A stretch of DNA of 32,000 nucleotides from Edaphobacter aggregans. Its GTDB lineage: Bacteria > Acidobacteriota > Terriglobia > Terriglobales > Acidobacteriaceae. This document shows, one piece after another, positions 180-25,785 of this stretch. The DNA is taken from positions 5,010,001 through 5,042,000 of the forward strand of contig NZ_RSDW01000001.1 of the NCBI RefSeq assembly GCF_003945235.1, in the 5' to 3' direction. Position numbers and translations under genes: made by a program. The notes under the pieces are model-generated. The model saw nothing but the letters and a program-made list of their open reading frames with translations, was not told where the DNA came from and did no database searches. How positions within the stretch are numbered: position 1 is the first letter of the stretch; each line of letters starts with the position of its first letter.

Positions 180-854
180 ATGGCTACATCTGCATCCCCG
201 CAAGGGCCCGTGCTGCCGTTCGCGCTATCACACGAAAAGAAAGCTGCCTCAGGATCAATCGCCAGCGATCACTCACTCCTCGAAATTGATCGTGAGTTGG
301 ACATGCTCTTCGACAAGATGCAGGACGAACTGGAAGAGACAGGCGAAGCCAGTCCTGAGAGCATCGAACGGTTTCACTCGTTTTGTGATGCATACGGCGA
401 GAAGGTCGATCGCATCGGCCGGTTCATTCGCGTCATGGAGGCTCGTACAGCCTATTGCAAGGCCGAGGCGGCTCGACTCGTTGCGAGAGGCAAGATTGCC
501 GAGAACAAGGTTGAACAGACCAAGTTGCTCATTCTCTACTACCTGCAAAGCCGCGAGATTACTAGGATGGAAGGGAAGCAGTTCACCCTCCGCTGCCAGA
601 AGAACTCGCAGGACTCGGTGCGCATCAGCGATCCCGAACTGATTCCGTTGCGACTAAAGCGAATTGAGGCCCACTTCGACGGTGGCACCTGGGAACGCAT
701 CGTTGCGGCGCTCCCGGATGAACTGAAATCCATCCTGAACGCGAGTGTTCAGGACATCATTCCGATGAATGACGCAATCAAGCAGGCCTTCGCTCAGGGA
801 GATGCAGTCGATGGAGCGACAGTTACACGGGGGCATCACGTCCGGGTTGCATGA
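180..854 (+). CDS. Siphovirus Gp157-like phage protein
   Basis: ATG at 180 lies 7 nt after AAGGAG. The layout matches what I remember of the Gp157 family: an N-terminal coiled-coil (EKVDRIGRFIRVMEARTAYCKAEAARLVARGKIAENKVEQTKLLILYYL), then GKQFTLRCQKNSQDSVRISDPELIP, and a C-terminal GDAVDGATV...VRV. Confidence 0.65.
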   Translation: MATSASPQGPVLPFALSHEKKAASGSIASDHSLLEIDRELDMLFDKMQDELEETGEASPESIERFHSFCDAYGEKVDRIGRFIRVMEARTAYCKAEAARLVARGKIAENKVEQTKLLILYYLQSREITRMEGKQFTLRCQKNSQDSVRISDPELIPLRLKRIEAHFDGGTWERIVAALPDELKSILNASVQDIIPMNDAIKQAFAQGDAVDGATVTRGHHVRVA

Positions 855-1666
855 GGTGATTCTCGATGGGACGAGGTGGGTAGCATGGATCCTTTGCGCA
901 GATCATTGAAGACGCGAAAGACCGTGTTCTGGCCCGCCGCGTCGAAAGCGGGGGTACATCAAGGAGATATACGAAACTTGCATGCGCTGTGCGACTTTGT
1001 ACTTATAGCCTCCGTGAGTGGCTACACCTCCCTGAGGCGGGAGAATCGTATCATTGAATGGCGAAGTTAAGGCGAAGATGGTAATGAGTATGGTTGCACT
1101 TTTGCGGTCCCGAATTGAAGCGTCTTTGGCTGGCCGTATTCCTTCCACCTCGACTCCGCGCCCTAAGCGCTAACTGGAATCGTTATCCTGCGGCCTAAAT
1201 GAGATAGATTGCCTCAGCGCATTTCCACGGGGAACATTAGCGGAAACATGCGGGTCGAAAAGCACGGGTGGACCAGTCTGGTGCACGGTCTGTTGGCTGC
1301 CTGCGTTTGCCGCAAGAGATGGCAGCGCCTTACGCCGATCTTCTTCCGTAAGCGATCGACAACTCGGCGGAACTTTCTCAAGGGCTCAAGTTCCAACTCA
1401 AAGACCTGGGTTATGAGTTCCCGCTCATATTCTCGCCTCAACGGATTACGACACGTGCATTGAGGAATACGAGCCTAGCGATTTCGCCATCACGTACCTA
1501 TACAAGCGATATCTGCGACTTCCGGAAGGAATTCGCTAGTCCTTGGCGAGGGACGGCACCATGTGGGAAGAACAATGGTAGTCAACTACGATTAGGATAA
1601 TGACGAACGCCTCTGATGTGATGAAACTTGCTGCCGTTACAATTGAGTCCGGACTCGGAAAGATTG

Positions 1667-4600
1667 ATGCCACGTATATTCGACAACATCGAGTCTAATC
1701 TGCTTCCCGCGCTGCGGACGACGCTGAACGTTGCTGACCGCTCTGATTTTTGTGTCGGCTATTTCAATTTGCGCGGGTGGAAGGCCATTGATGATCTCAT
1801 CGAAAAATGGCCAGGGGGGCCCGGAAAACAGTGCCGGCTTCTCGTCGGCATGCAACGGCCGCCGCATGAAGAACTGCGTGCGGCTTTTAGCCTTATTCCT
1901 GGCGATGACAAATTAGACAACCAAACCGTCGCACGCTTGAAGAAACGCTTGGCTGAAGACTTCCGAAGCCAGCTTACTTTTGGAGTGCCAACGAATGCGG
2001 ACGAAGCGGCTCTACGCAGGCTTTCCGCACAACTTAAGGCTGGGAGGGTGGTCGTCAAGCTTTTCCTTCGTCATACGTTGCACGCCAAGCTGTATCTCCT
2101 CTTTCGTTCAGATCCGATCAACCCTATCGTTGGTTTTCTCGGAAGCAGTAACCTCACGCTTTCGGGACTTTCTCACCAGGGAGAACTGAATCTCGATGTA
2201 ATGGATCACGATGCAGGCAAGAAGCTAGCCGGGTGGTTCGAAGATCGCTGGATTGACCATTGGTGTGTGGACATCACCGCCGAGTTGATCCAGATTATTG
2301 ATGAGAGCTGGGCACGTGAGGAAATTCCGCCGCCGTATCAGATCTATGTGAAAATGGCCTACCACTTAGCTCAAGAGGCCCGGGCAGGACTTTCTGAGTT
2401 CCGAATACCATCAGAATTTGGCCACAGGCTTTTCGATTACCAGGTCGCTGCCGTTAAGATAGCCGCTCATCATTTAAACAAGCGCGGCGGGGTTCTGATC
2501 GGTGACGTGGTCGGTCTCGGAAAAACGCTGATGGCAACCGCTCTGGCTAAAATTTTTCAGGATGATCACTTCACCGAAACTCTCATCATCTGTCCGAAGA
2601 ACCTAGTCAAGATGTGGGAAGAGTATGTGTCGCAGTATCGACTCCTAGCGAAAGTTCTCTCCGTGACCGCCGCGGCGCGGGAACTGCCCGAGCTGCGACG
2701 TTATCGAGTGGTACTGATCGACGAGAGCCACAATTTGCGTAATCGTGAGGGAAAGAGATATCGAGTAATCCAGGAATACATTCAAGAAAACGAGAGCAAA
2801 TGTATTTTGTTGTCGGCGACGCCTTACAACAAAACCTATTTGGACTTGTCGAGCCAGCTCCGCTTGTTCTTGCCAGACGATAAGAATCTGACAATCAGGC
2901 CGGAACGTCTTTTGCGAGAATTAGGTGAAACCGAGTTTATTCGTCGACATCAATGCGATGTCCACTCTCTGGCCGCATTTGAAAAGAGTGGATATGCAGA
3001 CGACTGGCGCGAACTAATGCGGCGCTACATGGTACGTCGAACACGAAGCTTCATTCAGGATAACTACGCAGATACCGACACTTCTACGGGTCGCAGATAT
3101 CTTACGTTCGAGGATGGTTCCCGGTCTTATTTTCCCGAGCGCGTTCCAAAAACCGTAAAGTTTCGCATCGACGAACGAGACCCGTCTGACCAATACGCGA
3201 TGTACTATGCTGCTGACGCTGTCGGCGCTATCAATGCGCTCACTTTGCCACGCTATGGTCTAGGCAATTATGTTGCCCCCCGGCCCGACAAAGCAGCCAC
3301 GGCAACGGAGGCTAGGCAGCTTCAAAATCTCTCGCGCGCAGGAAAACGGCTAATGGGATTTTGCAGGACGAATTTATTTAAGCGGCTAGAGAGTAGCGGT
3401 TCCGCCTTTCAGCAATCAATCGAGCGGCACATCTTGAGAAATCACATTTTCCTGTTTGCCATCGAAAATGGTTTGCCCCTCCCCTTGGGCACTCAAGACT
3501 CTGGCCTTCTCGACACAGGGAACTACGATGAGGACGTTGACGATGAGACCGCCAGCGCTGACATGTTTGATGACAACAACGAAGATGATCCGAAAGCCTC
3601 GCTGCGTCCATTGCATCTTAGATCGGCAGAAGATTTTGCCAGACGAGCCGAGGAAGCGTATCGGGCATATGCCAACCAATTCAAGAATCGCTTCAAATGG
3701 CTGCGGGCAGATCTTTTCGTCTCGTCTCTTGCCAAGGACCTGGCGAGCGATGCCGCGAGTTTGCTTGTAATTTTGGGCCGATGTGGAGAATGGAATCCTG
3801 ATAAAGACGCGAAACTTGCAGCGCTATACAAGCTTCTGACAGAAGAACACCCCAATGAGAAGGTCATCGTTTTCACCCAGTTCGCTGACACGGTTCGATA
3901 TTTGGAGACTCAACTCCGTGCGCGCGGATTACCTCGCCTAGCCGGTGTTACCGGGGAGGCAGAAGACCCCACAAGCTATGCGTGGCGATTCAGTCCCGTC
4001 AGTAACAATAAGCGAGATCGAGTCTCCGAGAATGAAGAGCTTCGCATTCTTGTGGCAACCGATGTTCTGAGTGAAGGACAGAATCTACAGGATGGCTCTA
4101 TCATCGTCAATTTTGACCTACCTTGGGCGATCATTCGTCTCATTCAGCGGGCCGGTCGCGTCGATCGTATTGGACAGAAATCTGAAAAGATACTTTGCTA
4201 CTCGTTCCTGCCGGCCGAAGGTGTAGAGAATCTGATTAGGCTCCGTGCTCGCGTCCGTCAACGTCTGCACGAGAATGCCGAGGTGGTTGGCACAGATGAA
4301 GCGTTTTTTGAAGATGAGAGAGAGAGACAAAAACTCTTTGATCTTTACCATGAAAAGGCTGGGATTCTGGACGGCGAAACCGACACCGAAGTTGATCTCG
4401 CCTCTTATGCCTATCAAATTTGGAAAAATGCGATTGATCGGTTTCCTGAATTGCAAAAGACGATCCCCGCCATGCCGCCCGTGGTCTTTTCGACGCACTC
4501 CCATAGAGCGACGGAGAAAAGGCCAGACGGCGTTCTAGTGTATCTTCGGACCGCCGAAGGCAACGATGCTCTTGCATGGGTAGACAAGGCGGGTAACAAC

Positions 4601-5065
4601 GTCACTGAGTCTCAATTCGAGATTTTGAAAGCGGCAGAATGCTCACCTGATGCGCCAGGATTACAACGACAAGAGGATCATCACGACCTAGTACGCAAGG
4701 GGGTAGCGGTTCTCGTAGCCGAGGAAAAGTCTGTCGGTGGACAACTGGGACGTCCGTCGGGAGCTCGCTTCCGCACATACGAACGACTCAAACGCCATGC
4801 GGATCTGATGAAGGGTACATTGTGGGATATCCCGCAACTCGCTAAAGTGATCGAGGAGATTTATCGTTTTCCGTTGCGCCAATCAGCCGCGGATACACTC
4901 AACCGCCAGCTGAGATCTGGGATTTCCGATCAGAAGCTGGCTGAACTGACCATGGCACTACAAGACGACGATCGATTCTGCGTGGTTCAGGAAGAAGAAC
5001 ACGCCGATGAACCCCAGATAATCTGCTCGCTCGGGCTTACATCCGACAATAACCCGAAAGCCTGA
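1667..5065 (+). CDS. PLD(HKD) nuclease domain fused to an SNF2-family SF2 helicase/translocase
   Basis: One HKD motif: HAK at 2081-2089 and GSSNLT at 2141-2158. Helicase motifs: GLGKT 2513-2527, DESH 2720-2731, [33 protein letters not shown] prefer ATG 1667 (MPRIFDNIE...) over the track's TTG at 1628. Confidence 0.9.
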
Positions 5066-5072
5066 GGAAGCG

Positions 5073-8000
5073 ATGTCTCTCAACCCCACCAGAGCGCGAC
5101 AACATCTACAACATGGCGATCTCCGCTCCCTTTTTATTGAAGACCTTGGGTGGGATCACCATGAAAGCGGCGTTGAGATCACAGTCTCTGACGAACAGAT
5201 ATCGCTTCGCGGACTGGCACAGAAGCGTGGCATGATCGCGTATCAATACGCTACATCAGCGGGTCAGTCCCTGCCCGCCTATTCGCAACGTAGAAAAATC
5301 GAACACCAGATTGCCAAGGTCGCGCACGAACATTTGATTGTTTTCACTGACACAGCCAATCACACCCAGATATGGCAATGGGTGAAGCGGGAGAGTGGTA
5401 AGCCGGCAGCGTGCCGCGAGCATACGTTTCACACCTCACAACAGGGCGAGGCTTTGCTTCAGAAACTTCAAGCTATTGCTTTCACGCTTGAAGAAGAGGA
5501 GCGGCTGTCCCTCACCGATGTGACGCGACGAACACGCGCCGGATTTGATGTCGAACGTGTTACCAAGCGGTTTTATGACCGTTTTCAGAAGGAACATAAA
5601 GCGTTCCTGAAGTTCATTGAGGGAATCACCGAGCGCACCGATCACGAATGGTACGCGTCAGTTATGCTCAATCGGCTGATGTTTGTGTATTTCGTTCAGC
5701 GAAAGGGGTTCCTGGACGGAGACCGCGACTATCTTCGCAACCGGCTTAAGCAACTCCGGGAAGAGCACGGCCGGGATAAGTTTTATTCGTTTTATCGCTA
5801 TTTTCTTTTGCGCCTTTTCCATGAGGGCTTGGGTGGCAGAAAGAGAACGATCGATCTTGAAAAGCTTGTCGGTCGTATCCCTTATCTAAATGGAGGCCTC
5901 TTCGATATCCATGAACTTGAATCGCCAGATCGCTACGGGAAGACGATTCAAATTCCAGATGAGGCCTTCGAGCGAATCTTCGACTACTTTGACCAGTATC
6001 AGTGGCACTTGGATGAGAGGCCGCTTCGAGCGGATAACGAGATCAACCCAGACGTTCTTGGGTACATATTTGAGAAGTACATCAACCAAAAGCAGATGGG
6101 CGCGTACTACACAAAGGAAGATATCACCGAGTACATCTGCAAGAATACTGTTATCCCATTCTTGTTTGACGCCGCCCGCGCTGAGTGTAAGGTAGCCTTC
6201 GAAAATCCGAAAGGTCCGACTGTTTGGGATCTGCTCAAGAATGACCCTGACCGTTATATTTATTCCGCTGTCCGTCATGGAAATGACATACCATTCCCGG
6301 CCAGCATTCAAGATAGTCTTAGGTCCAAAACTCTGCAGAATGCAGTTAGTAGCGAGCCTGCACGCACGGTCGAATCGCGCATGGCTTGGAATAAGCAGGC
6401 TCCAGAAGCGCATGCACTCGCCACAGAGAACTGGCGCGAAGTCATAGACCGTCGGAGCCGATACGAAGAATTGAAGCGTCAGCTCACAGATGGTGTAGTT
6501 TCTTCGATAAACGGCTTGATCACACGCAATCTGGATATCCGCCAATTTGCGCAAGACGCAATCGAGAATTGCGAAGGCCCCGATCTGCTTCGCGCTTTCT
6601 GGCATTCCATTCAGGGTGTGACCATCCTCGATCCGACATGCGGCTCTGGCGCGTTCCTGTTCGCAGCCCTCAATATTCTCGAACCACTCTATGAGGCGTG
6701 TCTCGACCGAATGGAAGCGTTCATTGAGGATCTAGAACGATCCAGCGAGAAACACGGTCCGGAGAAGTTTTCGGATTTTCGCAAGGTTTTAGCTCAAGTC
6801 GCAGGGCACCCCAATCGGCGTTATTTCATTTTCAAGAGCATCATCCTTAATAACCTTTTTGGGGTCGACATCATGGAGGAGGCTGTCGAGATATGTAAGC
6901 TTCGCCTCTTCCTGAAACTTGCTGCCCAGGTCGAACCAGACCCCTCCCGTGAAAATCTCGGGATTGAACCTTTGCCGGACATCGATTTTAATATCCGGGC
7001 AGGCAACACACTTGTTGGTTATGCCACATACGACGAAGTGACAAAAGCTGCATCTAGCAGTTTTGACTTCAATCATTCAATGGCGAAGATCTCTTCGCAG
7101 GCGGCGGAACTACAACAGGGATTCGACGTATTCCGCGAGCAGCAAGTCGGAGGGGATAGCTCATTTCCGATCGAGGCCAAAAAGCAACTGCGAGAGCGTC
7201 TCAAGGCCCTCGACGATGAACTTAACCGACGTTTAGCGACAGAAAGTGGTGTTTCACCTGCCGACAAGCAAGCGTATGCCAAATGGCTGAGGTCTCACCA
7301 ACCGTTTCATTGGTTCGTTGAGTTTCACGGAATAATGAATCGCGGTGGATTTGATGTGATCATCGGAAATCCGCCATATGTAGTCAACACTCCCGAGAAG
7401 GTGTCCTATACGATCCAGTCGGACCGCTTTGTAACTTACCCCTGCAAGAATCTCTACGCCATTGTCTTCGAGCGTTCGCTGAACCTGGCCCACTCTATCT
7501 CATCTGTGGGATTGATAGTTCAACTGACGGCACTCTCTTCCGAAAAGATGAAGCCATTGCAAGACTTGCTGATCCAGAGAGGTTTCCTCGTAGCACCGTC
7601 TTTCCCGCGCCGCCCGGAATCAATATTTGACGGCGTGGAGATGCCGGTAACGATATTGATTTCTCGCTCAGAAGACAAAGGCATGTTTACTTCCCGGGTC
7701 TCGCGTTTTTACACCGAACAGCGATCTGTTGCGCTTAGCGTTTTGTCTCTAACTAACCATACCGCCAGGCTGCAAAATCACCGCATTGGGAAAATAGGGT
7801 CCGAACTGGAGCTCGGCATCCTTGCAAAGGTCCTAACGAACAAACTTCAGCTTGAATCACTCACAACTGAGGTGTCCGAAAACGCGCTTTACTATCAGGA
7901 GGCGTGTCGATACTGGGTAAAGGCTTGCAAAGGGTATCCATTTTTTCGACGTAACGGAGAATCGATGCGGCCTCCCCATGGACGCACTGCGTTCTTTCAG

Positions 8001-8393
8001 AGTCGTGAGGCCTGCGCATTCGCTGCATGTTTGATCACATCAACCCTGTTTTACTGGTTTTATAGCTGTTTTTCCGATTGCGAACATATCAACGACTCGT
8101 TACTGAAAGGGTTCAATATTCCCGGCTCCTGGAACACTGCGGATTGGGTGTCGATTGAGCGGCGCCTTGCACAGAGCCTCAAACAACACTCTCGTCGCAA
8201 GACTATCAATACGAAGCAGGGTCATAAGATCGAGTACGACGAACTGGATGCGTCGACGTCCAAGGAGATCCTCGATGATATTGACCGCGAGTTGGCGCAT
8301 CAGTATAGGCTCACGGAGGAGGAATTAGACTTCATCATTAGCTATGACATCAAGTACCGCATGGGTGTCGTGATGGAGGAAGAGGAGCAATGA
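5073..8393 (+). CDS. large gamma-class N6-adenine DNA methyltransferase (Eco57I/type IIG-like) with N- and C-terminal extensions, presumed target-recognition region
   Basis: SAM motif I ILDPTCGSGAFL (DPTCGSG at 6630-6650). Catalytic motif IV GNPPYV (NPPY at 7368-7379). Motif order I then IV. The gene starts 8 nt after the helicase stop, with a GAGGAAG RBS. Confidence 0.9.
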   Translation: MSLNPTRARQHLQHGDLRSLFIEDLGWDHHESGVEITVSDEQISLRGLAQKRGMIAYQYATSAGQSLPAYSQRRKIEHQIAKVAHEHLIVFTDTANHTQIWQWVKRESGKPAACREHTFHTSQQGEALLQKLQAIAFTLEEEERLSLTDVTRRTRAGFDVERVTKRFYDRFQKEHKAFLKFIEGITERTDHEWYASVMLNRLMFVYFVQRKGFLDGDRDYLRNRLKQLREEHGRDKFYSFYRYFLLRLFHEGLGGRKRTIDLEKLVGRIPYLNGGLFDIHELESPDRYGKTIQIPDEAFERIFDYFDQYQWHLDERPLRADNEINPDVLGYIFEKYINQKQMGAYYTKEDITEYICKNTVIPFLFDAARAECKVAFENPKGPTVWDLLKNDPDRYIYSAVRHGNDIPFPASIQDSLRSKTLQNAVSSEPARTVESRMAWNKQAPEAHALATENWREVIDRRSRYEELKRQLTDGVVSSINGLITRNLDIRQFAQDAIENCEGPDLLRAFWHSIQGVTILDPTCGSGAFLFAALNILEPLYEACLDRMEAFIEDLERSSEKHGPEKFSDFRKVLAQVAGHPNRRYFIFKSIILNNLFGVDIMEEAVEICKLRLFLKLAAQVEPDPSRENLGIEPLPDIDFNIRAGNTLVGYATYDEVTKAASSSFDFNHSMAKISSQAAELQQGFDVFREQQVGGDSSFPIEAKKQLRERLKALDDELNRRLATESGVSPADKQAYAKWLRSHQPFHWFVEFHGIMNRGGFDVIIGNPPYVVNTPEKVSYTIQSDRFVTYPCKNLYAIVFERSLNLAHSISSVGLIVQLTALSSEKMKPLQDLLIQRGFLVAPSFPRRPESIFDGVEMPVTILISRSEDKGMFTSRVSRFYTEQRSVALSVLSLTNHTARLQNHRIGKIGSELELGILAKVLTNKLQLESLTTEVSENALYYQEACRYWVKACKGYPFFRRNGESMRPPHGRTAFFQSREACAFAACLITSTLFYWFYSCFSDCEHINDSLLKGFNIPGSWNTADWVSIERRLAQSLKQHSRRKTINTKQGHKIEYDELDASTSKEILDDIDRELAHQYRLTEEELDFIISYDIKYRMGVVMEEEEQ

Positions 8394-8938
8394 CCGACCT
8401 GCAGAGCCTGACGCTAGACGGATTGCATGAACGTCACCCTGGTCTGACTCAAGCCTTGGGGCAAACCTATTGCGAGGCGGCGTCGGTTTGCTTTTCGCGT
8501 CATCATCAGCCGCCGGTCACTGTCTCACTGAAACACGGTGAAACTCAGCAGCTACGTTTCCTCAACTTTCTTGTTCCTGATGTGCGAGTTCGCAACGCAA
8601 ACGCCAATGAAATTGATGCCACGGAAGCGGCCGCGTACGGTGTATCACTAGCAGCCGTTGAAGCAGTTGCCGGATTGGTTGCTGTTCGAAGGGCGGAAAC
8701 GCTGACAGGTGCAGATTGGTATGTCGCTCCTGAGGGCACAGGTGCAGACGACCTGGAGGACTGCATCCGTTTGGAAGTATCAGGCATAAGCGGCGGAGGA
8801 AGTAGCGATGTCGTCCGTCGCCTTCAGGAAAAGGTCGCACAAACGGCGCGTGGGAAGAGCAACTTGCCCGCAATGGCATCCGTCGTTGGCTTCAAGGTGC
8901 TTGAAGTAGCAATTTCACCTTTAGGGGCAGGAGCATGA
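8390..8938 (+). CDS. hypothetical protein (182 aa), translationally coupled to the methyltransferase
   Basis: ATGA start/stop overlap at 8390-8393, with a GGAGGAAGAGGAG RBS inside the end of the upstream gene. Protein-like composition. A possible nuclease-like D...E pattern (GADWYV ... RLEVSG) is inference only. Confidence 0.7.
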   Translation: MTDLQSLTLDGLHERHPGLTQALGQTYCEAASVCFSRHHQPPVTVSLKHGETQQLRFLNFLVPDVRVRNANANEIDATEAAAYGVSLAAVEAVAGLVAVRRAETLTGADWYVAPEGTGADDLEDCIRLEVSGISGGGSSDVVRRLQEKVAQTARGKSNLPAMASVVGFKVLEVAISPLGAGA

Positions 8939-10047
8939 CGTGGGCTGAATTTCATGCCGCAAGTGAAAAGACCGCAATGGAAGCCGGGCAGTTTTTCCGC
9001 GACGGAAATATCACGCAGGCACTCCCGTTATACGCAAAGGCGGCCGAACTTGAACAACATGCGCTTGCAGTAGTTGACACTTCCAAGGTCCGCACCAGGG
9101 GTATCACGGCGGTTAGCGCAGTATCTTTGTGGTACAAAGCCGTTGACTACGATCGTGCAGAACAGTTGGCACATTCAATGCTCGGTGATCCATCAATACC
9201 GGCCTTTGCGAGAATTGATTTGCGTAATCTCGTCCAGGCCATCTGGACAGAGAGTTCTAAGCAGGCTGCAAATGTTTCGTTCCTTCCCGGGCAGGTGTAT
9301 GTCTCGGTTAAAGGAGGAGAGGTTGTAACTGGCGGGGCACCACTAGATTTGGTTATAGAGAAGGTACAGACGATTCAGGCAATGTTCTATCGGACCATCG
9401 AATTTATAAAAGACATGCCGCTGCGTCCCCGCGGCGCACCAATCCGTGACATCCAGGAAGCGTGTCGTCCATGGCTCTTTCAAGCCGCACCGGGAAGTTA
9501 CCAATTTTCTGTGGCGATTCAGGAACCGAAACAACGTGATTTTTTCAAAGAAGATATTCGGCCAGACCTTGTGGCAACGCAATTTCTTGACATTCTTAGG
9601 GCCACTACAAACGAAGATCAGAGGCAGCTGGAGCAGATCGTTCCCAGCACTGAATATCGCAACGTTTTCTTGAAGCTGTCGCGCAATCTCGCTCCCACAG
9701 GAAAGACCTTCGGGTCAATTGAATTTCGTACATCCACCGGTGAAGCTCCCATCGCGCTAACACCCGACGCAAGAACGGCCATTAACGAGACACTGAAGAA
9801 AGGCCGTCCCCCGGTATCACAGGATGCGCCCGAAGACGAAGAAGAGATTGTAGGAATGCTTCGAGCAGTTGATCTTGATAAAGACTGGCTCGATGTGACG
9901 GTCAATGGTCAGGCGGTCCATGTAACTGGGCTTGGAGATGCGATGGACGATCTCATTGGACCGATGGTAAACAAAATGGTGAAGGTACAGATTGTCAGGA
10001 AGGTCAATGGCCCATTTCGTTTCCGGGATATTGAAGTTAACGAATGA
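8935..10047 (+). CDS. hypothetical protein (370 aa) with a helical TPR-like N-terminus
   Basis: ATGA overlap at 8935-8938 with a GGGGCAGGAG RBS. Long ORF with balanced composition. No motif I can name. Confidence 0.75.
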   Translation: MTWAEFHAASEKTAMEAGQFFRDGNITQALPLYAKAAELEQHALAVVDTSKVRTRGITAVSAVSLWYKAVDYDRAEQLAHSMLGDPSIPAFARIDLRNLVQAIWTESSKQAANVSFLPGQVYVSVKGGEVVTGGAPLDLVIEKVQTIQAMFYRTIEFIKDMPLRPRGAPIRDIQEACRPWLFQAAPGSYQFSVAIQEPKQRDFFKEDIRPDLVATQFLDILRATTNEDQRQLEQIVPSTEYRNVFLKLSRNLAPTGKTFGSIEFRTSTGEAPIALTPDARTAINETLKKGRPPVSQDAPEDEEEIVGMLRAVDLDKDWLDVTVNGQAVHVTGLGDAMDDLIGPMVNKMVKVQIVRKVNGPFRFRDIEVNE

Positions 10048-10352
10048 TAGCGATTTATAGCTTCGTTAAGTTTCGGTACAGCGACCAAAGACGATCGCCT
10101 TATTTCTCTTTTGACTTCAGGTTCAGACTGACGGTATTGCAGGCACACCGCAAAGATTCAGGATTAGAACTCTGCGCCGCGAATTGCCAGGCTGAAAGAC
10201 GCGAAAGATTCTTTGTAAGCCGTCACGAGAGGTTCGAAATCCTTTTTTCCGAAATTCGCCATGCGTTATAGTGAACGGCCTTGTTCACGGCCCACAGCCT
10301 TACCGACCAGAAGTGCTCCGAGCGTTGAGCGGCGCTGTTTTACAATCGGCTC

Positions 10353-11282
10353 ATGCCAAGAAGCCGTCGCTACCTAATTCCGAGCACTGGCGAGTCATAC
10401 ACCGCCGCGAAGGTCAAGAAACTCTCGATCGAACAGCAGACGGAAGTCATGCGCCACTGGTTTGAGGATCGATATATTGCTCCGGATGAGCTGCCCTACG
10501 ATTCCGGTGAGGGTGGGATTCAGTGGATTGGGAGCGGCCCTTATAACGCCGACCAGCAGCTTCGTCAGGAGTTTGATGAGGTCGCCTCTGGCGAGGCGAT
10601 TGCCAAACTATCTTCCGATTTAGGCGACTTACACTACGAGTGGGCTAAAAGGCCTGACGCCAGCGAGTACGACACGGAGGAAATGTCTGATTGGATCGCC
10701 AGCGTCGATCCCTTTTTTGCTTTAATGACGGGCTTGAGCGACATCGAGGAAACAACCAAACGGAAACGCACTGTCCGAGATGGCAAGATCCTTCACCGGC
10801 TACTTTTCGCAAATGTTGTCACTTCGCTCGAAACATATTTGGGTGACGCGTTTACGAAGGTGCTTCTCTCCCGAGAAGATCTGCTCTTTCACTTTTACCG
10901 AACGAACCAGCGTTTCCGAGAATTCGACCCGCAGCCACCGGACACAGAGCCGACCGAACAACATATGAGGACTATTGTTGAGAATTTCATGGCTTGGAAC
11001 ATCTGGCACCGCATGACGCGAACCGCAAGAGTCTACAAAGATGCTTTGGGTATCGAGCTCCCCGCAGACCTCGGCATCATAGGGCCTGCGATAGGCTTCC
11101 GGCACGATATAGTGCACCGCAACGGGAAATCTGCAGCAGGCGTGGTGGGAACGTGGGGCATCGCCGAAATTCTGGCCCTCACGGAGGCCGTGTCAGGGTT
11201 GGCGACCGATATCCAGAAGAAGATCGACAAGCTATCGCCAAAGGTGAGCACAATCGACGATGGCGGCTTTGTCCAAATCTGA
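10353..11282 (+). CDS. HEPN-like domain protein (C-terminal Rx4H motif)
   Basis: FRHDIVHRNG: the R codon is at 11100-11102 and the H codon at 11115-11117. Upstream helices (SLETYLGDAFTKVLL) resemble RiboL-PSP / MAE_28990-type HEPN families. The N-terminal ~150 aa are unassigned. The RBS is weak, so the start is uncertain. Confidence 0.5.
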   Translation: MPRSRRYLIPSTGESYTAAKVKKLSIEQQTEVMRHWFEDRYIAPDELPYDSGEGGIQWIGSGPYNADQQLRQEFDEVASGEAIAKLSSDLGDLHYEWAKRPDASEYDTEEMSDWIASVDPFFALMTGLSDIEETTKRKRTVRDGKILHRLLFANVVTSLETYLGDAFTKVLLSREDLLFHFYRTNQRFREFDPQPPDTEPTEQHMRTIVENFMAWNIWHRMTRTARVYKDALGIELPADLGIIGPAIGFRHDIVHRNGKSAAGVVGTWGIAEILALTEAVSGLATDIQKKIDKLSPKVSTIDDGGFVQI

Positions 11283-12111: not shown

Positions 12112-14949
12112 ATGGCCACTAACACCGTAGCGTCCGCGGGAATATCTGTGAAACGCGTTGTGAGCAAAGAGGGCATTGATCCCTTCGATGCCGTGATCTG
12201 GGAAAAACGCGAGGCACGCATCGACGACGCCAAGGGCAATAGCGTATTTCGGCAGGAGGACGCGCGGGTTCCGGCAAACTGGTCGCAAACAGCCCTGAAT
12301 ATCGTAGCCTCAAAGTACTTCCACGGCAGGATCGGCACCGAAGAGCGCGAGAAGGGTGTCGACGAGCTCATCCCCCGCGTTGTCTCCACCATTCGGGCGG
12401 CCGGGGAACAGCAGGGCTATTTCTCATCCTTGGAAACGGCCGATAGCTTCCAGGCCGAATTGACGATGCTCCTACTCGGCCAGTACGCGTCCTTCAACTC
12501 GCCGGTGTGGTTCAACGTAGGCTGCCATACGCTTGAACCCGAGAACAAGGCAAAGAGCTGGCATTGGGACGCGGCGCGGGAAACAGTCATTCAGGCAGCC
12601 GCAGGGTATAGCAAGCCACAGTGCTCGGCCTGCTTTATCAATTCTGTCGACGACTCAATGGAATCGATTCTTGATCTCGCCAAGACCGAGGGGATACTGT
12701 TCAAGGGGGGCTCGGGAACGGGAACTAACTTCTCGGCCATCCGCGCCTCAATGGAAAGCCTGTCAGCAGGAGGAACTGCCTCAGGACCGCTTTCTTTCAT
12801 GCGTGGGTATGACGCCTTCGCCGGCGTGATCAAATCGGGCGGAAAGACCCGCCGTGCGGCGAAGATGGCGATTCTTGATGCCGACCACCCCGACATCGAG
12901 GACTTCATCCACTGCAAGAGCAGGGAAGAGAAGAAGGCCCAGGCCCTAATCGCTTCCGGTTACGACGGCAACGGTCCCGACTCTGAAGCCTACGCCTCGA
13001 TTTTCTACCAAAACGCCAATAACTCGGTCCGCGTGACCGATGAGTTTATGCGCAAAGCGGAAGAAGGTGGTGAATGGGCTCTCACCGGCCGCATCGACGG
13101 CAAGCCGGTCAAAACCGTCCGGGCACGCTCGCTGCTGTGGTCGATAGCAGAAGAGACGTGGCGGTGCGGTGATCCCGGGATGCAGTTCGATACGACCATT
13201 AATGCGTGGCATACTTGCCCGCGGTCCGGTCGCATTGCCGCCTCCAATCCGTGCTCGGAGTATATGTTCCTCGACGACTCTGCCTGCAACCTGGCTTCGC
13301 TCAACCTGCTTCGCTTCGTCACCGACGAAGCATTCAACATAGCCTTGTTCCAGCATGCGGTACGCGTGCTCATTATCGCCCAGGACATCCTGGTCGATAT
13401 GGCGGGATATCCGACCGAATCCATTGCCATCCACTCCCACGACTACCGACCGCTGGGTCTGGGATATGCGAATCTCGGAGCGTTGTTGATGAGCCTCGGG
13501 CTCGCCTATGATTCTCCCGAAGGCCGGGATATGGCTGCGGCCATTACCTCGCTGATGGGCGGAACCGCATACAGAACATCAGCACAGGTGGCAGCGATGA
13601 CATCGGAGTTGACGGCTGCAGACCCGGAGTTGAAGGACACGCAGAGCGGCGCGTTTCCCGGCTATGAGCGGAATCGAGAACCATTCCTCGATGTGATCCG
13701 CAAACACCGCGAGGCCGCGGAGGCGATGGTTCTCACCGCAACTTCGGTGGCTCTGACGCTGCGGGAGACGGCCGTTAGCTGCTGGCAGGAGGCAGAACGC
13801 TTTGGCGAGCAGCACGGCTTTCGCAATGCGCAGGTCACGGTCCTGGCCCCGACTGGCACGATCGGATTCATGATGGATTGCGACACCACGGGCATTGAAC
13901 CTATGCTCGGTGTAGTCATCTTCAAGAAGATGGTGGGCGGCGGATATCTCACCCTGGTCAACCAGACGGTCTCGAACGCCTTGAACCGGCTAGGTTACTC
14001 ACAAGAGGAGATCGAGGTGATCAGGGAGTATATCGAAGAGAACAACATGATCGAGGGCGCGCCGGGACTTCACGAGGAGCACCTGCAAGTGTTTGATTGC
14101 GCATTCCGACCATCCAAGGGCAAACGTTCGATCGGCTGGAGCGGTCATATCGACATGATGGCGGCGGTGCAGCCCTTCCTGTCTGGGGCGATCTCGAAGA
14201 CGGTAAATCTGCCGTCTGAGGCAACCGTCTCTGATGTCGCAGAGGCATACCTGTCTGCCTGGCGCAAGGGACTGAAGGCGGTCGCAATCTATCGCGACGG
14301 CTCGAAGACCTCCCAGCCAGTCAGCGCGTCCGCTTCGGCTGTCAAAACGAGTGTCACGTCGACGTCTCCGGCCGACCTTTCAGGCCCTCCGGCGGCGAAC
14401 CGTCACCGTTTGCAGGACGAACGCTCGGCCATCAACCATCACTTCTCCATCGCGGGTCACGAAGGCTACCTGACTGTCGGACTTTACCCCAATGGGCAGC
14501 CGGGCGAGATCTTCGTGCGCATGGCCAAAGCAGGTTCGACGATTGCTGGCCTTATGGAATGCTTTGGTACGGTGGTGTCTGTCGGCCTGCAACACGGAGT
14601 GCCGCTCAAGGTCCTGTGCGACAAACTCTCCCACACCCGGTTCGAGCCCTCCGGCTGGACCGGCAATGAGGAGATGGGCTACGCCAAATCCATCATGGAC
14701 TACCTCTTCCGCTGGATGGAGCTGCGCTTCCTGTCAGGACCGCAGCTGCCTCTGTTCGCCACGAAAGAGGCGGCCAGCGGGAATGCCGACAGGGTGCCAA
14801 ACCACACCCCTGACGGCATCTCCCACTTCCTCCACGATGCGTACGAGGTAGGCGATGCGCCGCTGTGCTCAACTTGCGGCTCACTTATGGTTCGTAACGG
14901 TAGCTGCTACAAGTGCGCAAATTGCGGCGGTACTAGCGGATGTTCTTGA
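12112..14949 (+). CDS. nrdJ: class II (adenosylcobalamin-dependent) ribonucleoside-diphosphate/triphosphate reductase
   Basis: 945 aa. Typical RNR core segments: NPCSEYMFLDDSACNLASLNL, VLAPTGTIGFMMDCDTTGIEP, SKTVNLP. C-terminal CxxC...CxxC zinc ribbon (CSTCGSLMVRNGSCYKCANCG). GGAGG RBS before the ATG. Confidence 0.95.
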   Translation: MATNTVASAGISVKRVVSKEGIDPFDAVIWEKREARIDDAKGNSVFRQEDARVPANWSQTALNIVASKYFHGRIGTEEREKGVDELIPRVVSTIRAAGEQQGYFSSLETADSFQAELTMLLLGQYASFNSPVWFNVGCHTLEPENKAKSWHWDAARETVIQAAAGYSKPQCSACFINSVDDSMESILDLAKTEGILFKGGSGTGTNFSAIRASMESLSAGGTASGPLSFMRGYDAFAGVIKSGGKTRRAAKMAILDADHPDIEDFIHCKSREEKKAQALIASGYDGNGPDSEAYASIFYQNANNSVRVTDEFMRKAEEGGEWALTGRIDGKPVKTVRARSLLWSIAEETWRCGDPGMQFDTTINAWHTCPRSGRIAASNPCSEYMFLDDSACNLASLNLLRFVTDEAFNIALFQHAVRVLIIAQDILVDMAGYPTESIAIHSHDYRPLGLGYANLGALLMSLGLAYDSPEGRDMAAAITSLMGGTAYRTSAQVAAMTSELTAADPELKDTQSGAFPGYERNREPFLDVIRKHREAAEAMVLTATSVALTLRETAVSCWQEAERFGEQHGFRNAQVTVLAPTGTIGFMMDCDTTGIEPMLGVVIFKKMVGGGYLTLVNQTVSNALNRLGYSQEEIEVIREYIEENNMIEGAPGLHEEHLQVFDCAFRPSKGKRSIGWSGHIDMMAAVQPFLSGAISKTVNLPSEATVSDVAEAYLSAWRKGLKAVAIYRDGSKTSQPVSASASAVKTSVTSTSPADLSGPPAANRHRLQDERSAINHHFSIAGHEGYLTVGLYPNGQPGEIFVRMAKAGSTIAGLMECFGTVVSVGLQHGVPLKVLCDKLSHTRFEPSGWTGNEEMGYAKSIMDYLFRWMELRFLSGPQLPLFATKEAASGNADRVPNHTPDGISHFLHDAYEVGDAPLCSTCGSLMVRNGSCYKCANCGGTSGCS

Positions 14950-19244: not shown

Positions 19245-19670
19245 CCCGTCTCACCCATCCCAATTCAGGAGAGGTCCCATGTTGCTATTACCTCTCGTCG
19301 ATGTCCTAAAGAACAGGGGCATCAGCGATCCTGATCGCTTTCTTACCCCGTCCTCCTGGAACGATCTGCCCTCTCCTTTTGACATCGAGGGGATGGGGCC
19401 TGCCGTCACACAGATCCTCCACGCGATTCGTTCGCAGCGCCCGATGACTATCGTAGGTGACTACGATTGTGATGGTGTTCTCTCAACCGCAATCCTCGAA
19501 GCGACGCTGCGCAAGCTTGGAGCTCAACCAACCGTCTACCTTCCTCATCGCGACGAAGGCTATGGCCTTAGCAACGAGGTGGTGCACCGGTTCTCTATTG
19601 ATGGCACTTGTCTCCTCATCACCATTGACAACGGAATCAATGCAGCCGGCCCGGTCCGTCTTGCGCGGCG
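19245..19670 (+). repeat. right copy of the ~430-bp direct repeat (part of the intact recJ)
   Basis: See the left copy at 16880-17308. Confidence 0.85.
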
Positions 19671-20799
19671 CCTGGGGATTGGGGTGGTGATCGTGGACCA
19701 TCACCACATCGAAACGCGAGCGGAGGCGACTGCCGTGTGGTCGGAACACTTCTGCGCTGCCGGTATCGCAGTCCTGCTTTCGTGGGCCCTGCTTGAAACC
19801 GCCGGGGCCAGCGAGATCGGCTGCTTTCTGGCCGGTCTGAGCAGACTCGCGGGGATCGCGTCGATCGCGGATTGCGTGCCGTTGACCGGACCTACGAGAA
19901 CGCTGACGCGAATCGGCCTGGGCGAATTGGCCCATACCCGCCATGCCGGTCTTCGCAAAATGCTGACAATGGCAGGCGTTCGTGACAACGAAGTGCCTAC
20001 CTCTGAGCAGATCGCCTTTCGCGTAGCGCCTCGTATCAATGCGGCTGGGCGCGTCGGTCATCCGAACGAAGCCCTTCAGATGCTAAACGCGGTGGACCCG
20101 GACCGACAGGTTGAGCTCGCTCTTTCACTCGACTGCCTGAACAGGGAACGGCGCAAACGAGAAAAGGAAGCGCTCGAGGAACTGCTCCCGATGGTACCGA
20201 GTGACGTTCCGAAAGGTCTGGTGATCTATGGTCCGCATTGGAAGAAGGGAATCGCGGGGATACTTGCCAGCCGGGTTCGGGAACGCTACGGTGTGCCGTC
20301 CTTCGTGCTCGTCCAGGACTCGCGGACGGGAATGGCGGTAGGCTCGGGTCGAAGCGTTGAAGGCTTCAGCCTGATCGATGCCTTGCGCAGCTGCCAATCT
20401 GTGCTTCACCGCTTCGGCGGACATGAGCAGGCAGCGGGGGTGACGCTCACAGTAGAGAACATCCCAGCTTTTCGGCAACAGTTCGAAGCGTTTGTGTGCC
20501 AGCACCCTCCCGGCCTGACTGAAGAGCCTACCGCAGAGGCGGATTTGGACCTCGAGTCGGCTGGACGAGTCTTCCATAACCAACTTCGCCTGTTGGAGCC
20601 ATTCGGGATCGGGAACCCTACACCGATCTTCCGCATCCGGGATGTGTCGGTCCGGCCGGCATCTCCGGGTTTTGCCATCATCCGGCAGCGCAACCGGGAG
20701 TTGAGAGCTCGCTGGTCGGAACCGGTGAAAGGCCGCGGCGCCGTTCTCGTAGCGCTGAATGGCACCTCTGCCACGATCGTGCGATTTCATCCGGAATAG
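19279..20799 (+). CDS. recJ: single-stranded-DNA-specific exonuclease RecJ (DHH family)
   Basis: Motifs: DCDGV, YLPHRDEGYG, ITIDNG, VVIVDHHH (DHH), GGHEQAAG (DHHA1). AGGAGAGG RBS. At 506 aa it is shorter than E. coli RecJ. Confidence 0.85.
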   Translation: MLLLPLVDVLKNRGISDPDRFLTPSSWNDLPSPFDIEGMGPAVTQILHAIRSQRPMTIVGDYDCDGVLSTAILEATLRKLGAQPTVYLPHRDEGYGLSNEVVHRFSIDGTCLLITIDNGINAAGPVRLARRLGIGVVIVDHHHIETRAEATAVWSEHFCAAGIAVLLSWALLETAGASEIGCFLAGLSRLAGIASIADCVPLTGPTRTLTRIGLGELAHTRHAGLRKMLTMAGVRDNEVPTSEQIAFRVAPRINAAGRVGHPNEALQMLNAVDPDRQVELALSLDCLNRERRKREKEALEELLPMVPSDVPKGLVIYGPHWKKGIAGILASRVRERYGVPSFVLVQDSRTGMAVGSGRSVEGFSLIDALRSCQSVLHRFGGHEQAAGVTLTVENIPAFRQQFEAFVCQHPPGLTEEPTAEADLDLESAGRVFHNQLRLLEPFGIGNPTPIFRIRDVSVRPASPGFAIIRQRNRELRARWSEPVKGRGAVLVALNGTSATIVRFHPE

Positions 20800-24313: not shown

Positions 24314-24868
24314 CTATGCGGGTCGGCGTTCTTTGATCTCCCACAGAGATTGATCACAACTCGCATTGACGCCACACCCGCGACAGCGGTTCTTCTGATT
24401 GTGACTCCTGTCAGCGCAGTTGTTGAATCGAGATTTACGAACCTCCTGCACGACAGTAGCGAACCACGCAAGATTTTCGTCGGTTGGGACTACTTTGCGC
24501 GCTGTCTCCCCGCTATAGATCACCAGCCCGTAGGGCACTCGTTCCCGGTAGTTCTCCCGCACCAGCACAATATAGGCAAGCACCTGAATCAGGTGATTGG
24601 GATAGACGCCGCCCTGTGCCGGCGGCTTGGCCGACTTCTTGAATTCAACAGGAATAATGCCTTCGGCATTTCTGATCAGGCAGTCTGGCTTGCCGTGGAT
24701 GCCGTATGCGCTGGACCGTAAGGTCACGGCGGCCATGGGCTGCCCGGAATGGTCCTGGTAAAACACATCGCCGTTTGGCAGCCCGAGCCGCCGGCGCCGC
24801 TGCTGGCTCCGACGCAATAGGACGAACCCCACGAGTAAGGCCAGGATTGCGAACGCGAGGAGAATCAT
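24314..24868 (-). CDS. Cas4-like PD-(D/E)xK nuclease, C-terminal half with an N-terminal TM anchor
   Basis: TM segment ILLAFAILALLVGFVLL. Nuclease motifs GKPDCLIRNAEGIIPVEFKKS (D...ExK) and QVLAY (QxxxY). C-terminal CRGCGVNASC (Cx2Cx5C). ATG 24868 overlaps the upstream stop as ATGA. Confidence 0.7.
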   Translation of the reverse strand: MILLAFAILALLVGFVLLRRSQQRRRRLGLPNGDVFYQDHSGQPMAAVTLRSSAYGIHGKPDCLIRNAEGIIPVEFKKSAKPPAQGGVYPNHLIQVLAYIVLVRENYRERVPYGLVIYSGETARKVVPTDENLAWFATVVQEVRKSRFNNCADRSHNQKNRCRGCGVNASCDQSLWEIKERRPA

Positions 24869-25137
24869 TTCAAGAAACTCCACACAAACAACACAAGCAA
24901 AAGCAAGGCGATGAGGAGAGCCGCATAGGCGCCGCCGGTAAGCGCATCCGTTCTTGCGAGTTGCTCGCCCTGCTCTTTATGCCACATCTCGCCTTGCGCC
25001 TGGGCCTCGCGTGCCTCGGCGTCCGATGGCTTCTTCTGAACCATCTTGAGCCACCATGCACGCCGGCAGTACACGAACTCCGCCAACTCACTCACACGGA
25101 TTGGATCTTCAGGCCCTGGCACCTCATCATTCGGCAT
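24865..25137 (-). CDS. Cas4-like nuclease, N-terminal fragment with a C-terminal TM anchor
   Basis: VSELAEFVYCRRAWWLK matches the N-terminal Cys motif of Cas4/RecB-family Fe-S nucleases. It ends in the TM segment AYAALLIALLLLVLFVWSFL. Confidence 0.6.
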   Translation of the reverse strand: MPNDEVPGPEDPIRVSELAEFVYCRRAWWLKMVQKKPSDAEAREAQAQGEMWHKEQGEQLARTDALTGGAYAALLIALLLLVLFVWSFLK

Positions 25138-25197
25138 CCATTTCCACTTTCAGTCAAATTGGCAAATCAACTCAAGTCACACCACAGGAGCTTCGTC

Positions 25198-25785
25198 ATG
25201 TTCCGAGAATTGTCGCCTCTACTGACCCGGCGCAGCCTGGTCCTCACCGTATCGTCGATCGGCGAGGGCCGCATCCGCCTCACGATCACTCCGCGTCCCA
25301 CCGATAAGGATGAATCCAGGGAAGTGATTCAACCCCTCGCCGTCGAAGGAACCGCCGAAGAGCTCGATACCGATCTGGCCAAGGCCCTGATCGACTATAC
25401 GGCGGAACACCTGACGCTTGCCCGTTCGCTCGAGCAGGTCAAGGCAAACATGGAAGCGGCACTTAAAGAAGCCAAGGAAGAAGCAGCGAAGAAGGTCGCA
25501 GATGCGAAGAGGGCCATCAAACCAGCTTCGACAAAGACCGCCATGGCCCCTGCGCCCGAAGTCAGTAAGCCTGCGCCTCCAAGCCTGTTTGATGCCCCCA
25601 AGGAGCCTACGGCCAATCCGTCGGCGGCGAAAAAGCAGGTTGCAGACGACGATGAGGACGATGATTCGGATATTCCTTCACCCGGGGCGGCGGTGCAGCC
25701 CAGCATGTTTGACACCCAAAGCGAGGAAAACGAAATTCTGAAGGAGGCATTTTATGGCACTGATAACGACCACGCTGCCGCGTGA
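25198..25785 (+). CDS. PRTRC system protein E-like
   Basis: MFRELSPLLTRRSLVLTVSSIGEGRIRLTITP ... GTAEELDTDLAKALIDYTAEH, then an Ala/Lys/Pro-rich linker and an acidic tail (DDDEDDDSD). This matches my memory of the PRTRC E family. AGGAG RBS. The ORF upstream of 25198 is antisense to the Cas4 genes. Confidence 0.65.
   Translation: MFRELSPLLTRRSLVLTVSSIGEGRIRLTITPRPTDKDESREVIQPLAVEGTAEELDTDLAKALIDYTAEHLTLARSLEQVKANMEAALKEAKEEAAKKVADAKRAIKPASTKTAMAPAPEVSKPAPPSLFDAPKEPTANPSAAKKQVADDDEDDDSDIPSPGAAVQPSMFDTQSEENEILKEAFYGTDNDHAAA

Follow-up and report, generated by a model that had tools for sequence, protein, structure and literature searches.

When genes without recognised relatives are found at the end of a restriction-like operon, the question arises whether they belong to the restriction system itself or constitute a separate unit. 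This question is raised by two genes of Edaphobacter aggregans, here called C and D, which lie in a stretch of 32,000 nucleotides (nt) on contig NZ_RSDW01000001.1 (positions 5,010,001 to 5,042,000), referred to as the window. Four successive open reading frames (ORFs) occupy the forward strand at this place, encoding a helicase with a nuclease domain, an N6-adenine methyltransferase, C and D (Table 1). The start codon of C (ATG 8390) overlaps with the stop codon of the methylase gene in the 4-nt sequence ATGA (8390-8393), and the start codon of D (ATG 8935) overlaps in the same way with the stop codon of C (8935-8938). Directly 5′ of both starts, Shine–Dalgarno-like purine runs of the GGAGG/AGGAG type are present. 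The methylase, C and D genes are co-oriented; neither promoter-like nor terminator-like sites were called in between the genes of the operon, and no convincing terminator was found 3′ of D. A preliminary description of this DNA had already reported both ORFs and their start/stop coupling; both points were borne out, and the peptide strings that it quoted were all retrieved in the translations. Exact (100%) matches to the two proteins are EDE15_4203 and EDE15_4204 of E. aggregans, on a contig of 6.15 Mb.

C and D can be taken as real genes rather than chance ORFs, because 963 homologous protein clusters exist for C and 1602 for D, with the listed members being 58-100% identical in both families. 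A profile search with D returned 2079 representative clusters at 50% identity, and in the best 150 clusters, complete members are approximately 365-390 amino acids (aa) long and carry no domain fusions. All listed homologues of C and D are named 'hypothetical protein' at source. Neither protein matches a model at E<0.1 in Pfam (2025 copy), NCBIfam 20.0, PADLOC 2.0 or PHROGs. Comparison of three alignment profiles with the PDB sequences gave nothing meaningful for either protein, a search of 41 divergent D homologues against Pfam, aimed at a domain of unknown function that would cover them, returned sub-threshold TPR matches only, and literature searches found no description of the C-D pair. 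Both families are large, with that of D spread over many phyla, yet they are uncovered by Pfam, NCBIfam, PADLOC and PHROGs.

C-D is a self-contained, translationally coupled and horizontally mobile two-gene cassette. A scan of one genome per GTDB species yielded 50 loci from many phyla, and C and D adjoin in essentially every locus having upstream sequence; the overlap measures exactly 4 nt in 35 of the 40 called pairs. Conservation does not extend to any other gene, the next-largest cluster of neighbours comprising only 4 loci. Relatives of the helicase and methylase of the window were not found in these 50 genome loci beyond generic matches to the helicase C-terminal domain. A reverse test was based on 80 metagenome loci (L061-L140) encoding methylases that are 50-75% identical to the one in the window. 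The HKD-SNF2 helicase lies directly 5′ of the methylase in 51/51 loci with enough upstream sequence, while C or D is present beside the methylase in 0/53 loci with at least 1.8 kilobases (kb) downstream. Because of these two counts, the helicase-methylase pair is regarded as a conserved two-gene restriction-like system of which C-D is no part. The 3′ slot of this system is variable: in many loci it holds a DprA/SLOG-like gene (~185 aa, sub-threshold PF02481), and elsewhere GmrSD_N-HNH, DUF3644, DUF6883, DUF6431, PIN-GNAT or ASCH genes. In the window, this accessory slot is filled by C-D.

These counts bear directly on one of the functions suggested in the preliminary description, namely that C and D are specificity or assembly subunits. 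More broadly, they could be integral specificity, assembly or nuclease subunits of the HKD-SNF2 helicase/methyltransferase system, as the start/stop coupling of C to the methylase and the uninterrupted, co-oriented arrangement of the genes would suggest. This explanation is refuted by the loci of the methylase relatives and by the genomes in which C-D is paired with unrelated restriction-modification (R-M) types or with none, and we consider it very improbable indeed.

The cassette occurs in Acidobacteriota, in Alpha-, Beta- and Gammaproteobacteria, and in Actinobacteria, Nitrospinota, Planctomycetota, Spirochaetota, Ignavibacteriota and other phyla. It is strongly inclined to stand in R-M operons of unrelated types, either internally or at their 3′ end (Table 1), and this association regardless of R-M type is the most unusual feature of C-D. 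R-M genes directly 5′ of C-D are on the same strand and usually 7-80 nt away. Synteny with R-M-like genes in other genomes, by which the preliminary description could be checked, is real: it was seen in approximately 19-21 of ~60 loci, about a third, a fraction that is a lower bound, as many contigs are short and the set of R-M queries was limited. In at least 15 loci, C-D stands in a tight operon with the R-M genes. Other neighbours of the cassette are PADLOC PDC-M38, a GajB-like NERD-UvrD protein, an LmuB-like ATPase, NERD and DarT. In a clade containing Burkholderiales and other Betaproteobacteria (L014, L019, L021, L055 and L145), C-D is part of a larger, recurring locus with the order ResIII-like helicase, N6_N4 methylase of ~950 aa, C, D, sometimes one or more further genes, and a UvrD/NERD (GajB-like) helicase. 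L145 deviates from this order in that the methylase follows a PDDEXK_3 gene, and a ResIII-like helicase was not seen there.

The variety of partners also bears on a second proposal of the preliminary description, which compared the two genes with prrC. If this analogy held, C-D would be a guard that is silenced by contact with the R-M enzyme and freed as a suicide nuclease when a phage inhibits this enzyme. Its position does mimic that of prrC, in particular in the two loci where it lies inside Type I clusters after hsdM-hsdS, and the tight operons mentioned above also speak for such a guard. On the other hand, C and D remain 45-80% identical across R-M partners of five or more unrelated architectures. 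Close relatives of C-D sit in different contexts, a minority of copies stand alone among housekeeping genes (L051 has no R-M or methylase gene within 10 kb), and neither protein has an ATPase or HEPN domain. A PrrC-type guard of one R-M partner is hence unlikely.

The mobility of the cassette is visible at several levels. In a tree of D built by neighbour joining, the different contexts are intermingled, with one clade keeping the Type III-like locus. Close relatives in different contexts share DNA only from approximately 60-180 nt 5′ of C to the stop codon of D. The locus L053 (226-2155) shares the cassette and its upstream DNA with L006 (5868-5960 and 9273-11109), minus the 3.3-kb body of the Type ISP gene, and so looks like L006 after loss of this gene. 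Because of this shared DNA, at least some 'stand-alone' copies may derive from R-M-linked ones by deletion. No inverted repeats were found within 8200-10400; the only two direct repeats in this region are short and probably due to chance, and no repeats flanking the cassette were found.

C-D also occurs on integrative conjugative elements, and among its neighbours are ArdC, integrases, a relaxase, ParB and PRTRC genes. It could thus be asked whether the cassette serves the mobile element itself, by anti-restriction, restriction alleviation, establishment or repair, for example if it processed or protected single-stranded or nicked DNA on entry. The gene of the anti-restriction factor ArdC directly precedes C-D in two loci, L003 and L060, and lies no more than 10 kb away in L006, L027 and L058; integrase, relaxase, ParB and PRTRC genes are found nearby, including in the window, and the OB-like barrel of D described below would suit such a task. 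However, an anti-restriction factor would defeat its own purpose by being tightly co-transcribed with R-M operons that look active. Moreover, a tblastn search with D gave 0 matches in 72,556 plasmids and 50,697 phages, and a scan of 2.9 million viral contigs in IMG/VR returned only two truncated remnants. In our judgement, the environmental taxa in question may be under-represented in the plasmid and phage collections. Altogether, a role in the service of the mobile element is improbable.

As to what the cassette encodes, the structure predicted for C points to a nuclease fold. The AlphaFold2 model has a mean predicted local distance difference test (pLDDT) score of 91.5 and a predicted template modelling (pTM) score of 0.90. 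Its elements (helix 74-94, strands 96-103, 108-114 and 126-133, helix 138-154 and strand 161-167) follow each other along the chain in the order alpha-beta-beta-beta-alpha-beta, which is the order of the PD-(D/E)xK core, after an N-terminal extension of ~70 residues. Conservation was determined in 39 homologues taken from genomes, the median pairwise identity of which is 50%. In the first helix, D76 is kept in 39/39 and E79 in 36/39 sequences; D109, the counterpart of the 'PD' aspartate, is kept in 38/39, as are both E129 and S131 at the '(D/E)xK' position. The same acidic positions are kept across 109 metagenome sequences. The E / D / E-x-S layout that the preliminary description had read from the sequence is thus borne out, and its acidic residues proved near-invariant among the homologues (36-39/39).

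The preliminary description called this a possible degenerate PD-(D/E)xK fold. The order of elements, the acidic positions and the serine in place of lysine agree with that description, but the term 'degenerate' is doubtful, because all acidic positions are kept and the next helix carries a near-invariant K148 (37/39) and an invariant Q151 (39/39). Members of the PD-(D/E)xK superfamily that lack the lysine or have it relocated are known, and in some of them the relocated lysine is placed on the following helix, where RecB-like enzymes have their QxxxY motif. By analogy, K148 may take the catalytic role of the missing beta3 lysine. Structure comparison is no more than suggestive: a Foldseek search of the model against the PDB gave nothing at E<=0.001. 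The best match is the CinB nuclease (E 0.035, probability 0.87), followed by other weak matches to a tRNA-splicing endonuclease, the SPARDA DREN domain, Cas4, ACE1 and AdnA; several of the weak matches are nucleases with a PD-(D/E)xK fold. Alignment of the C profile by hhalign with a single NERD protein, a single Cap4 nuclease and the D profile was negative in all cases. At the level of the modelled fold, membership of C in the PD-(D/E)xK superfamily is likely, and we infer that C is an active, metal-dependent nuclease. The N-terminal extension (residues 1-70; 8390-8600) has the invariant residues H16, C34 and H39, and H38 and C125 are conserved at >=90%. This set of histidines and cysteines may form a metal site that has nothing to do with the nuclease core.

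The AlphaFold2 model of D (pLDDT 81.9) consists of three parts. The helical N-terminus and beta-rich C-terminus noted in the preliminary description are both present in this model, as a TPR-like and an OB-like domain, respectively. The five N-terminal helices (3-22, 26-46, 52-68, 72-83 and 90-112) are antiparallel. The D protein of the window has no TPR match in Pfam at E<0.1, and the sub-threshold TPR matches (E 0.002-0.03) occur in a few of the 41 divergent homologues, with the commonest family present in 3. Weak Foldseek matches (E 0.2-0.25) point to the XAP2 and LapB complexes, which contain TPR proteins. The label 'TPR-like' is a fair one. The central alpha/beta domain contains the most conserved motifs of the protein, GQVxVSVKGG, CRPWLFQ, PGSYQF and FLKLSRNLAP, as well as loops of low pLDDT at 114-118, 131-135 and 184-187; no structural or sequence relative of it was found by Foldseek against the PDB or by profiles against the PDB sequences. 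The C-terminal barrel is built from the strands 301-313, 318-323, 326-331, 348-355 and 361-368, and a helix (338-344). Its top Foldseek matches, RPA, PolD, CusF/SilF, CspA, IF1 and Stn1-Ten1, have probabilities of 0.9-1.0, but E-values of 0.02-0.3, and for the D model as a whole nothing was found in the PDB at E<=0.001. The C-terminus is OB-like in the model, and nucleic-acid binding by this barrel is only putative.

The domains of D are also informative with regard to a possible modification-dependent function. C-D could be a Type IV-like restriction module that attacks modified phage DNA and so complements the neighbouring R-M system. Its genomic habit is the same as that of TgvAB, two genes that form a unit and occur both in Type I clusters and elsewhere (PMC11411939). 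Like Type IV enzymes, C-D can be present where a cognate methylase is lacking, and in relatives of the system in the window a GmrSD_N-HNH gene fills the same 3′ slot. Nevertheless, DUF262/DUF1524, SRA, EVE, ASCH or another known reader of modified bases, and an NTPase, were not found, and the central domain of D is helix-rich in the model, as opposed to a beta-rich reader fold. Such a module is therefore considered unlikely as well.

Another explanation starts from the strict pairing of the two genes. With their translational coupling and their frequent location on islands, C and D may be thought of as an addiction or abortive-infection pair resembling toxin-antitoxin systems: D would neutralise the nuclease toxin C, and the mobile island or R-M operon harbouring the two genes would gain stability from them. 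Indeed, the Type I clusters that contain C-D also harbour classical PIN/Phd and PIN/MazE pairs. The presumed antitoxin D, however, is twice the size of the toxin, and a DNA-binding repressor domain cannot be recognised in it; the conservation of both proteins is unusually high, and no loci with C or D only were seen except for decayed remnants. This makes the explanation rather unlikely, if somewhat less so than a guard of the PrrC type.

Taken jointly, the observations are best accommodated if C is an active nuclease, D its stoichiometric gating partner, and the complex an auxiliary defence effector that is independent of one R-M partner. We hold the chances that this reading is right to be about evenly balanced. 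In such a complex, D76/E79, D109 and E129 of C would bind the metal, and K148 would supply the lysine. Binding of D to C in stoichiometric amounts is suggested by the translational coupling and the strict co-occurrence, and D would direct or gate the nuclease via its TPR-like domain, its conserved central domain and its OB-like barrel. As a second-layer nuclease acting independently of R-M, C-D would have a target that is common to all its contexts rather than to a particular R-M partner; candidates are invading or already restricted DNA, or its single-stranded intermediates. Because copies exist without any methylase nearby, the nuclease would have to be harmless to the host by itself, by being structure-specific, modification-dependent or active only on infection.

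A number of elements weigh against this reading. The canonical beta3 lysine is absent from C, which could instead be a non-catalytic binding module. A statistically significant structural link is missing for both proteins (the best Foldseek E-values are 0.035 for C and 0.022 for D), and no profile from Pfam, NCBIfam, PADLOC, PHROGs or the PDB sequences matches them. In the OB-like barrel and C-terminal tail of D (9835-10047), most of the conserved residues are acidic (D317, D338, D339, D365 and E367), which is odd for an OB fold that binds nucleic acids and hints at metal or protein binding. In addition, D evolves slowly and has a uniform architecture, unlike typical phage-sensing domains. Approximately 60% of the loci have no R-M gene adjoining C-D, some of the neighbours are plain housekeeping genes (MetH, Mfd, holA and LptE), and in two loci the gene directly 5′ is the anti-restriction gene ardC. 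The apparent enrichment of C-D near R-M genes could partly reflect shared residence on mobile islands.

A bolder version of the same reading holds that C-D is a previously unrecognised, widespread defence system, a type-agnostic 'restriction companion' in which nuclease C is gated by D and the central domain of D represents a new fold. The trigger would then be a signal common to all events or failures of restriction, such as DNA ends, single-stranded intermediates or a general anti-restriction ploy. If true, this would explain how one cassette can serve Type I, IIG, ISP, III and SNF2-type systems alike; we regard it as possible, though well short of probable. The candidate role of C-D as the primary restriction nuclease for orphan-looking methylases, as in L002, is unlikely in general, since a nuclease is already present in most partner systems and there are C-D copies in whose vicinity a methylase is lacking.

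Table 1. Features of the window, and genes accompanying C-D in other loci (positions refer to the window unless a locus is named).
Feature	Position	Strand	Remarks
Gene C	8390..8938	+	182 aa; proposed catalytic subunit, predicted PD-(D/E)xK fold, N-terminal extension of ~70 aa
C, D76-A-T-E79 codons	8615..8626	+	motif ANEIDATE; helix alpha1; first acidic position of the proposed active site
C, D109 codon	8714..8716	+	motif TGADWY; start of strand beta2; putative equivalent of the 'PD' aspartate
C, E129-V-S131 codons	8774..8782	+	motif RLEVSG; strand beta3; '(D/E)xK' position with Ser for Lys
C, K148-V-A-Q151 codons	8831..8842	+	helix alpha2; K148 is a candidate relocated catalytic lysine
Gene D	8935..10047	+	370 aa; partner protein, translationally coupled to C
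D, residues 1-112	8935..9270	+	five-helix TPR-like N-terminal domain (model)
D, residues 113-295	9271..9819	+	central alpha/beta domain with the most conserved motifs (model)
D, residues 301-368	9835..10038	+	C-terminal five-stranded OB-like barrel, helix between strands 3 and 4 (model)
PLD/HKD nuclease and SNF2 helicase	1628..5065	+	1145 aa; neighbour outside the cassette
Eco57I/MmeI-type N6-adenine methyltransferase	5073..8393	+	1106 aa; NPPY motif, long C-terminal region; outside the cassette
Gp157-like, RecJ-like, PRTRC E and ThiF genes	180-854, 19279-20799, 24706-25785, 27971-28783		
MmeI-type IIG enzyme	L001		directly 5′ of C-D
Type ISP enzyme	L006		directly 5′ of C-D
Type III Mod and Res	L008, L018		directly 5′ of C-D
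Type III-like (helicase plus Mod)	L014, L019, L021, L049, L055, L145		directly 5′ of C-D
Type I-like helicase/methylase/S-subunit sets	L012, L054		directly 5′ of C-D
Three-gene ResIII system	L004		directly 5′ of C-D
Small methylase	L002		directly 5′ of C-D
Type I clusters	L056, L144		C-D inside, after hsdM-hsdS, beside PIN toxin-antitoxin pairs
Type I system	L057		C-D divergent to it
DUF1156-methylase/SNF2 system	L143		C-D divergent to it
ArdC-type anti-restriction/metalloprotease gene	L003 3627-4757; L060 6458-7360		on conjugative-element-like contigs

Besides C-D, the window contains several other genes of interest. The 1145-aa protein matches PLDc_2, SNF2-rel_dom and Helicase_C in Pfam and C3a139 'HKD+Snf2' in PADLOC (2.5e-49), and has DrmD-like similarity as well. 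Its listed start codon is TTG 1628, but the true start is probably ATG 1667 (MPRIFDN...), because most homologues align only from residues ~7-14 onward. The methylase matches Eco57I (1e-22) and MmeI_Mtase (4.9e-9) in Pfam, and over its full length REase_MTase_IIG PDLC03628 in PADLOC (1030 bits). Just 3′ of the operon, a forward-strand ORF of 309 aa (10353-11282) matches phrog_17908 (8e-19), has weak matches to HEPN families and contains the motif RHDIVH (Rx4H); it probably encodes a HEPN-type RNase, and no relatives of it were found beside C-D in other genomes. Approximately 2 kb 3′ of the operon, the product of a 945-aa ORF (12112-14949, forward strand), which has a Cys-rich C-terminal tail, looks like a B12-dependent class II ribonucleotide reductase when its translation is read by eye. 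Further genes are Siphovirus Gp157-like, RecJ-like (DHH/DHHA1), PRTRC system protein E and ThiF-family genes. The GC content is 0.50-0.55 over 1-11 kb and 0.58-0.59 at 12-15 kb. The wider window looks like an integrative mobile island.

How C-D relates to known systems can be judged from both its likenesses and its differences. PrrC, a single protein that combines an ABC-ATPase-like part with an anticodon-nuclease domain, is tied to one Type I partner, in the EcoprrI operon. C-D resembles it as an accessory nuclease gene set inside or behind an R-M operon, and follows hsdM-hsdS in L056 and L144. In contrast to PrrC, C-D consists of two proteins, without an ATPase and without homology to it: no ATPase, HEPN or PrrC match was found in C or D with Pfam, NCBIfam or PADLOC. 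Moreover, a dedicated single Type I partner is lacking, as the partners of C-D are Type I, IIG, ISP, III and other systems, or are absent.

Hachiman, which combines the nuclease HamA with the helicase HamB, and Shedu are defence systems in which a PD-(D/E)xK effector is joined to a sensing part. The likeness to C-D lies in a small effector with a restriction endonuclease fold under a partner or sensing domain and in the location in defence islands; the difference is that C-D has no helicase or ATPase and no PADLOC match to HamA or SduA, and that the domains of D are different. With RecB-like nucleases, Cas4 and Hjc-type nucleases, of which only the RecB-like/Cas4 group was suggested by Foldseek, C shares the alpha-beta-beta-beta-alpha-beta order and acidic residues (Glu in alpha1, Asp in beta2 and Glu in beta3), and the conserved Q151 on the following helix recalls the QxxxY helix of the RecB-like enzymes. 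C differs from them by serine in place of the beta3 lysine, by the lack of a tyrosine after Q151, and by its 70-aa N-terminal extension with the invariant H16, C34 and H39, which is unique. In addition, its structural matches are not significant, and a sequence match is missing.

TgvAB is a two-gene, GmrSD-like Type IV system in the Type I cluster of Vibrio cholerae VPI-2, with proven anti-phage activity (PMC11411939). Like C-D, it is a two-gene unit that occurs in R-M clusters and outside them, as an autonomous module complementing R-M. However, TgvAB belongs to the GmrSD (DUF262/DUF1524) family, whereas C-D, a candidate defence module, has no such domains: DUF262 (GmrSD_N) and DUF1524/HNH were not found in C or D with Pfam, PADLOC or NCBIfam.

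Auxiliary or backup PD-(D/E)xK effectors are also encoded beside BREX and BREX-related (Hma/BR) loci (PMC12839542, Rakesh and Krishnan), where, as with C-D, an effector with a restriction endonuclease fold lies next to a methylase/helicase core. The resemblance extends to the window itself, as its HKD-SNF2 helicase and N6-methylase recall the effector/methylase pair of Type-2 BREX-related (Hma) systems (PMC12839542). On the other hand, C matches none of the known families of restriction endonucleases and has an obligatory partner in D. The operon as a whole was rejected as a BR/Hma system, since neither the DUF499 AAA+ ATPase nor DUF3780 was found in the six proteins of the window that were scanned (180-11282). 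It was likewise rejected as a class 1 DISARM system: no DrmA, DrmB (DUF1998) or DrmC was found, and in PADLOC the helicase and methylase have only partial DrmD-like and DrmMI-like similarity.

Because their defining domains were tested for and are absent, C-D belongs to none of the PrrC, TgvAB and BREX/BR backup endonuclease families, despite a similar genomic habit. C-D can best be described as an unannotated, widespread and defence-island-associated candidate nuclease cassette. For experiments, it offers two handles, i.e., a small candidate nuclease with serine for lysine in its putative active site and a conserved domain of unknown fold. If C-D is indeed an auxiliary nuclease, its indifference to the type of R-M system would suggest that all restriction systems have its trigger in common, and a new and very portable module would join PrrC, TgvAB and the BREX backup endonucleases as second-layer effectors.

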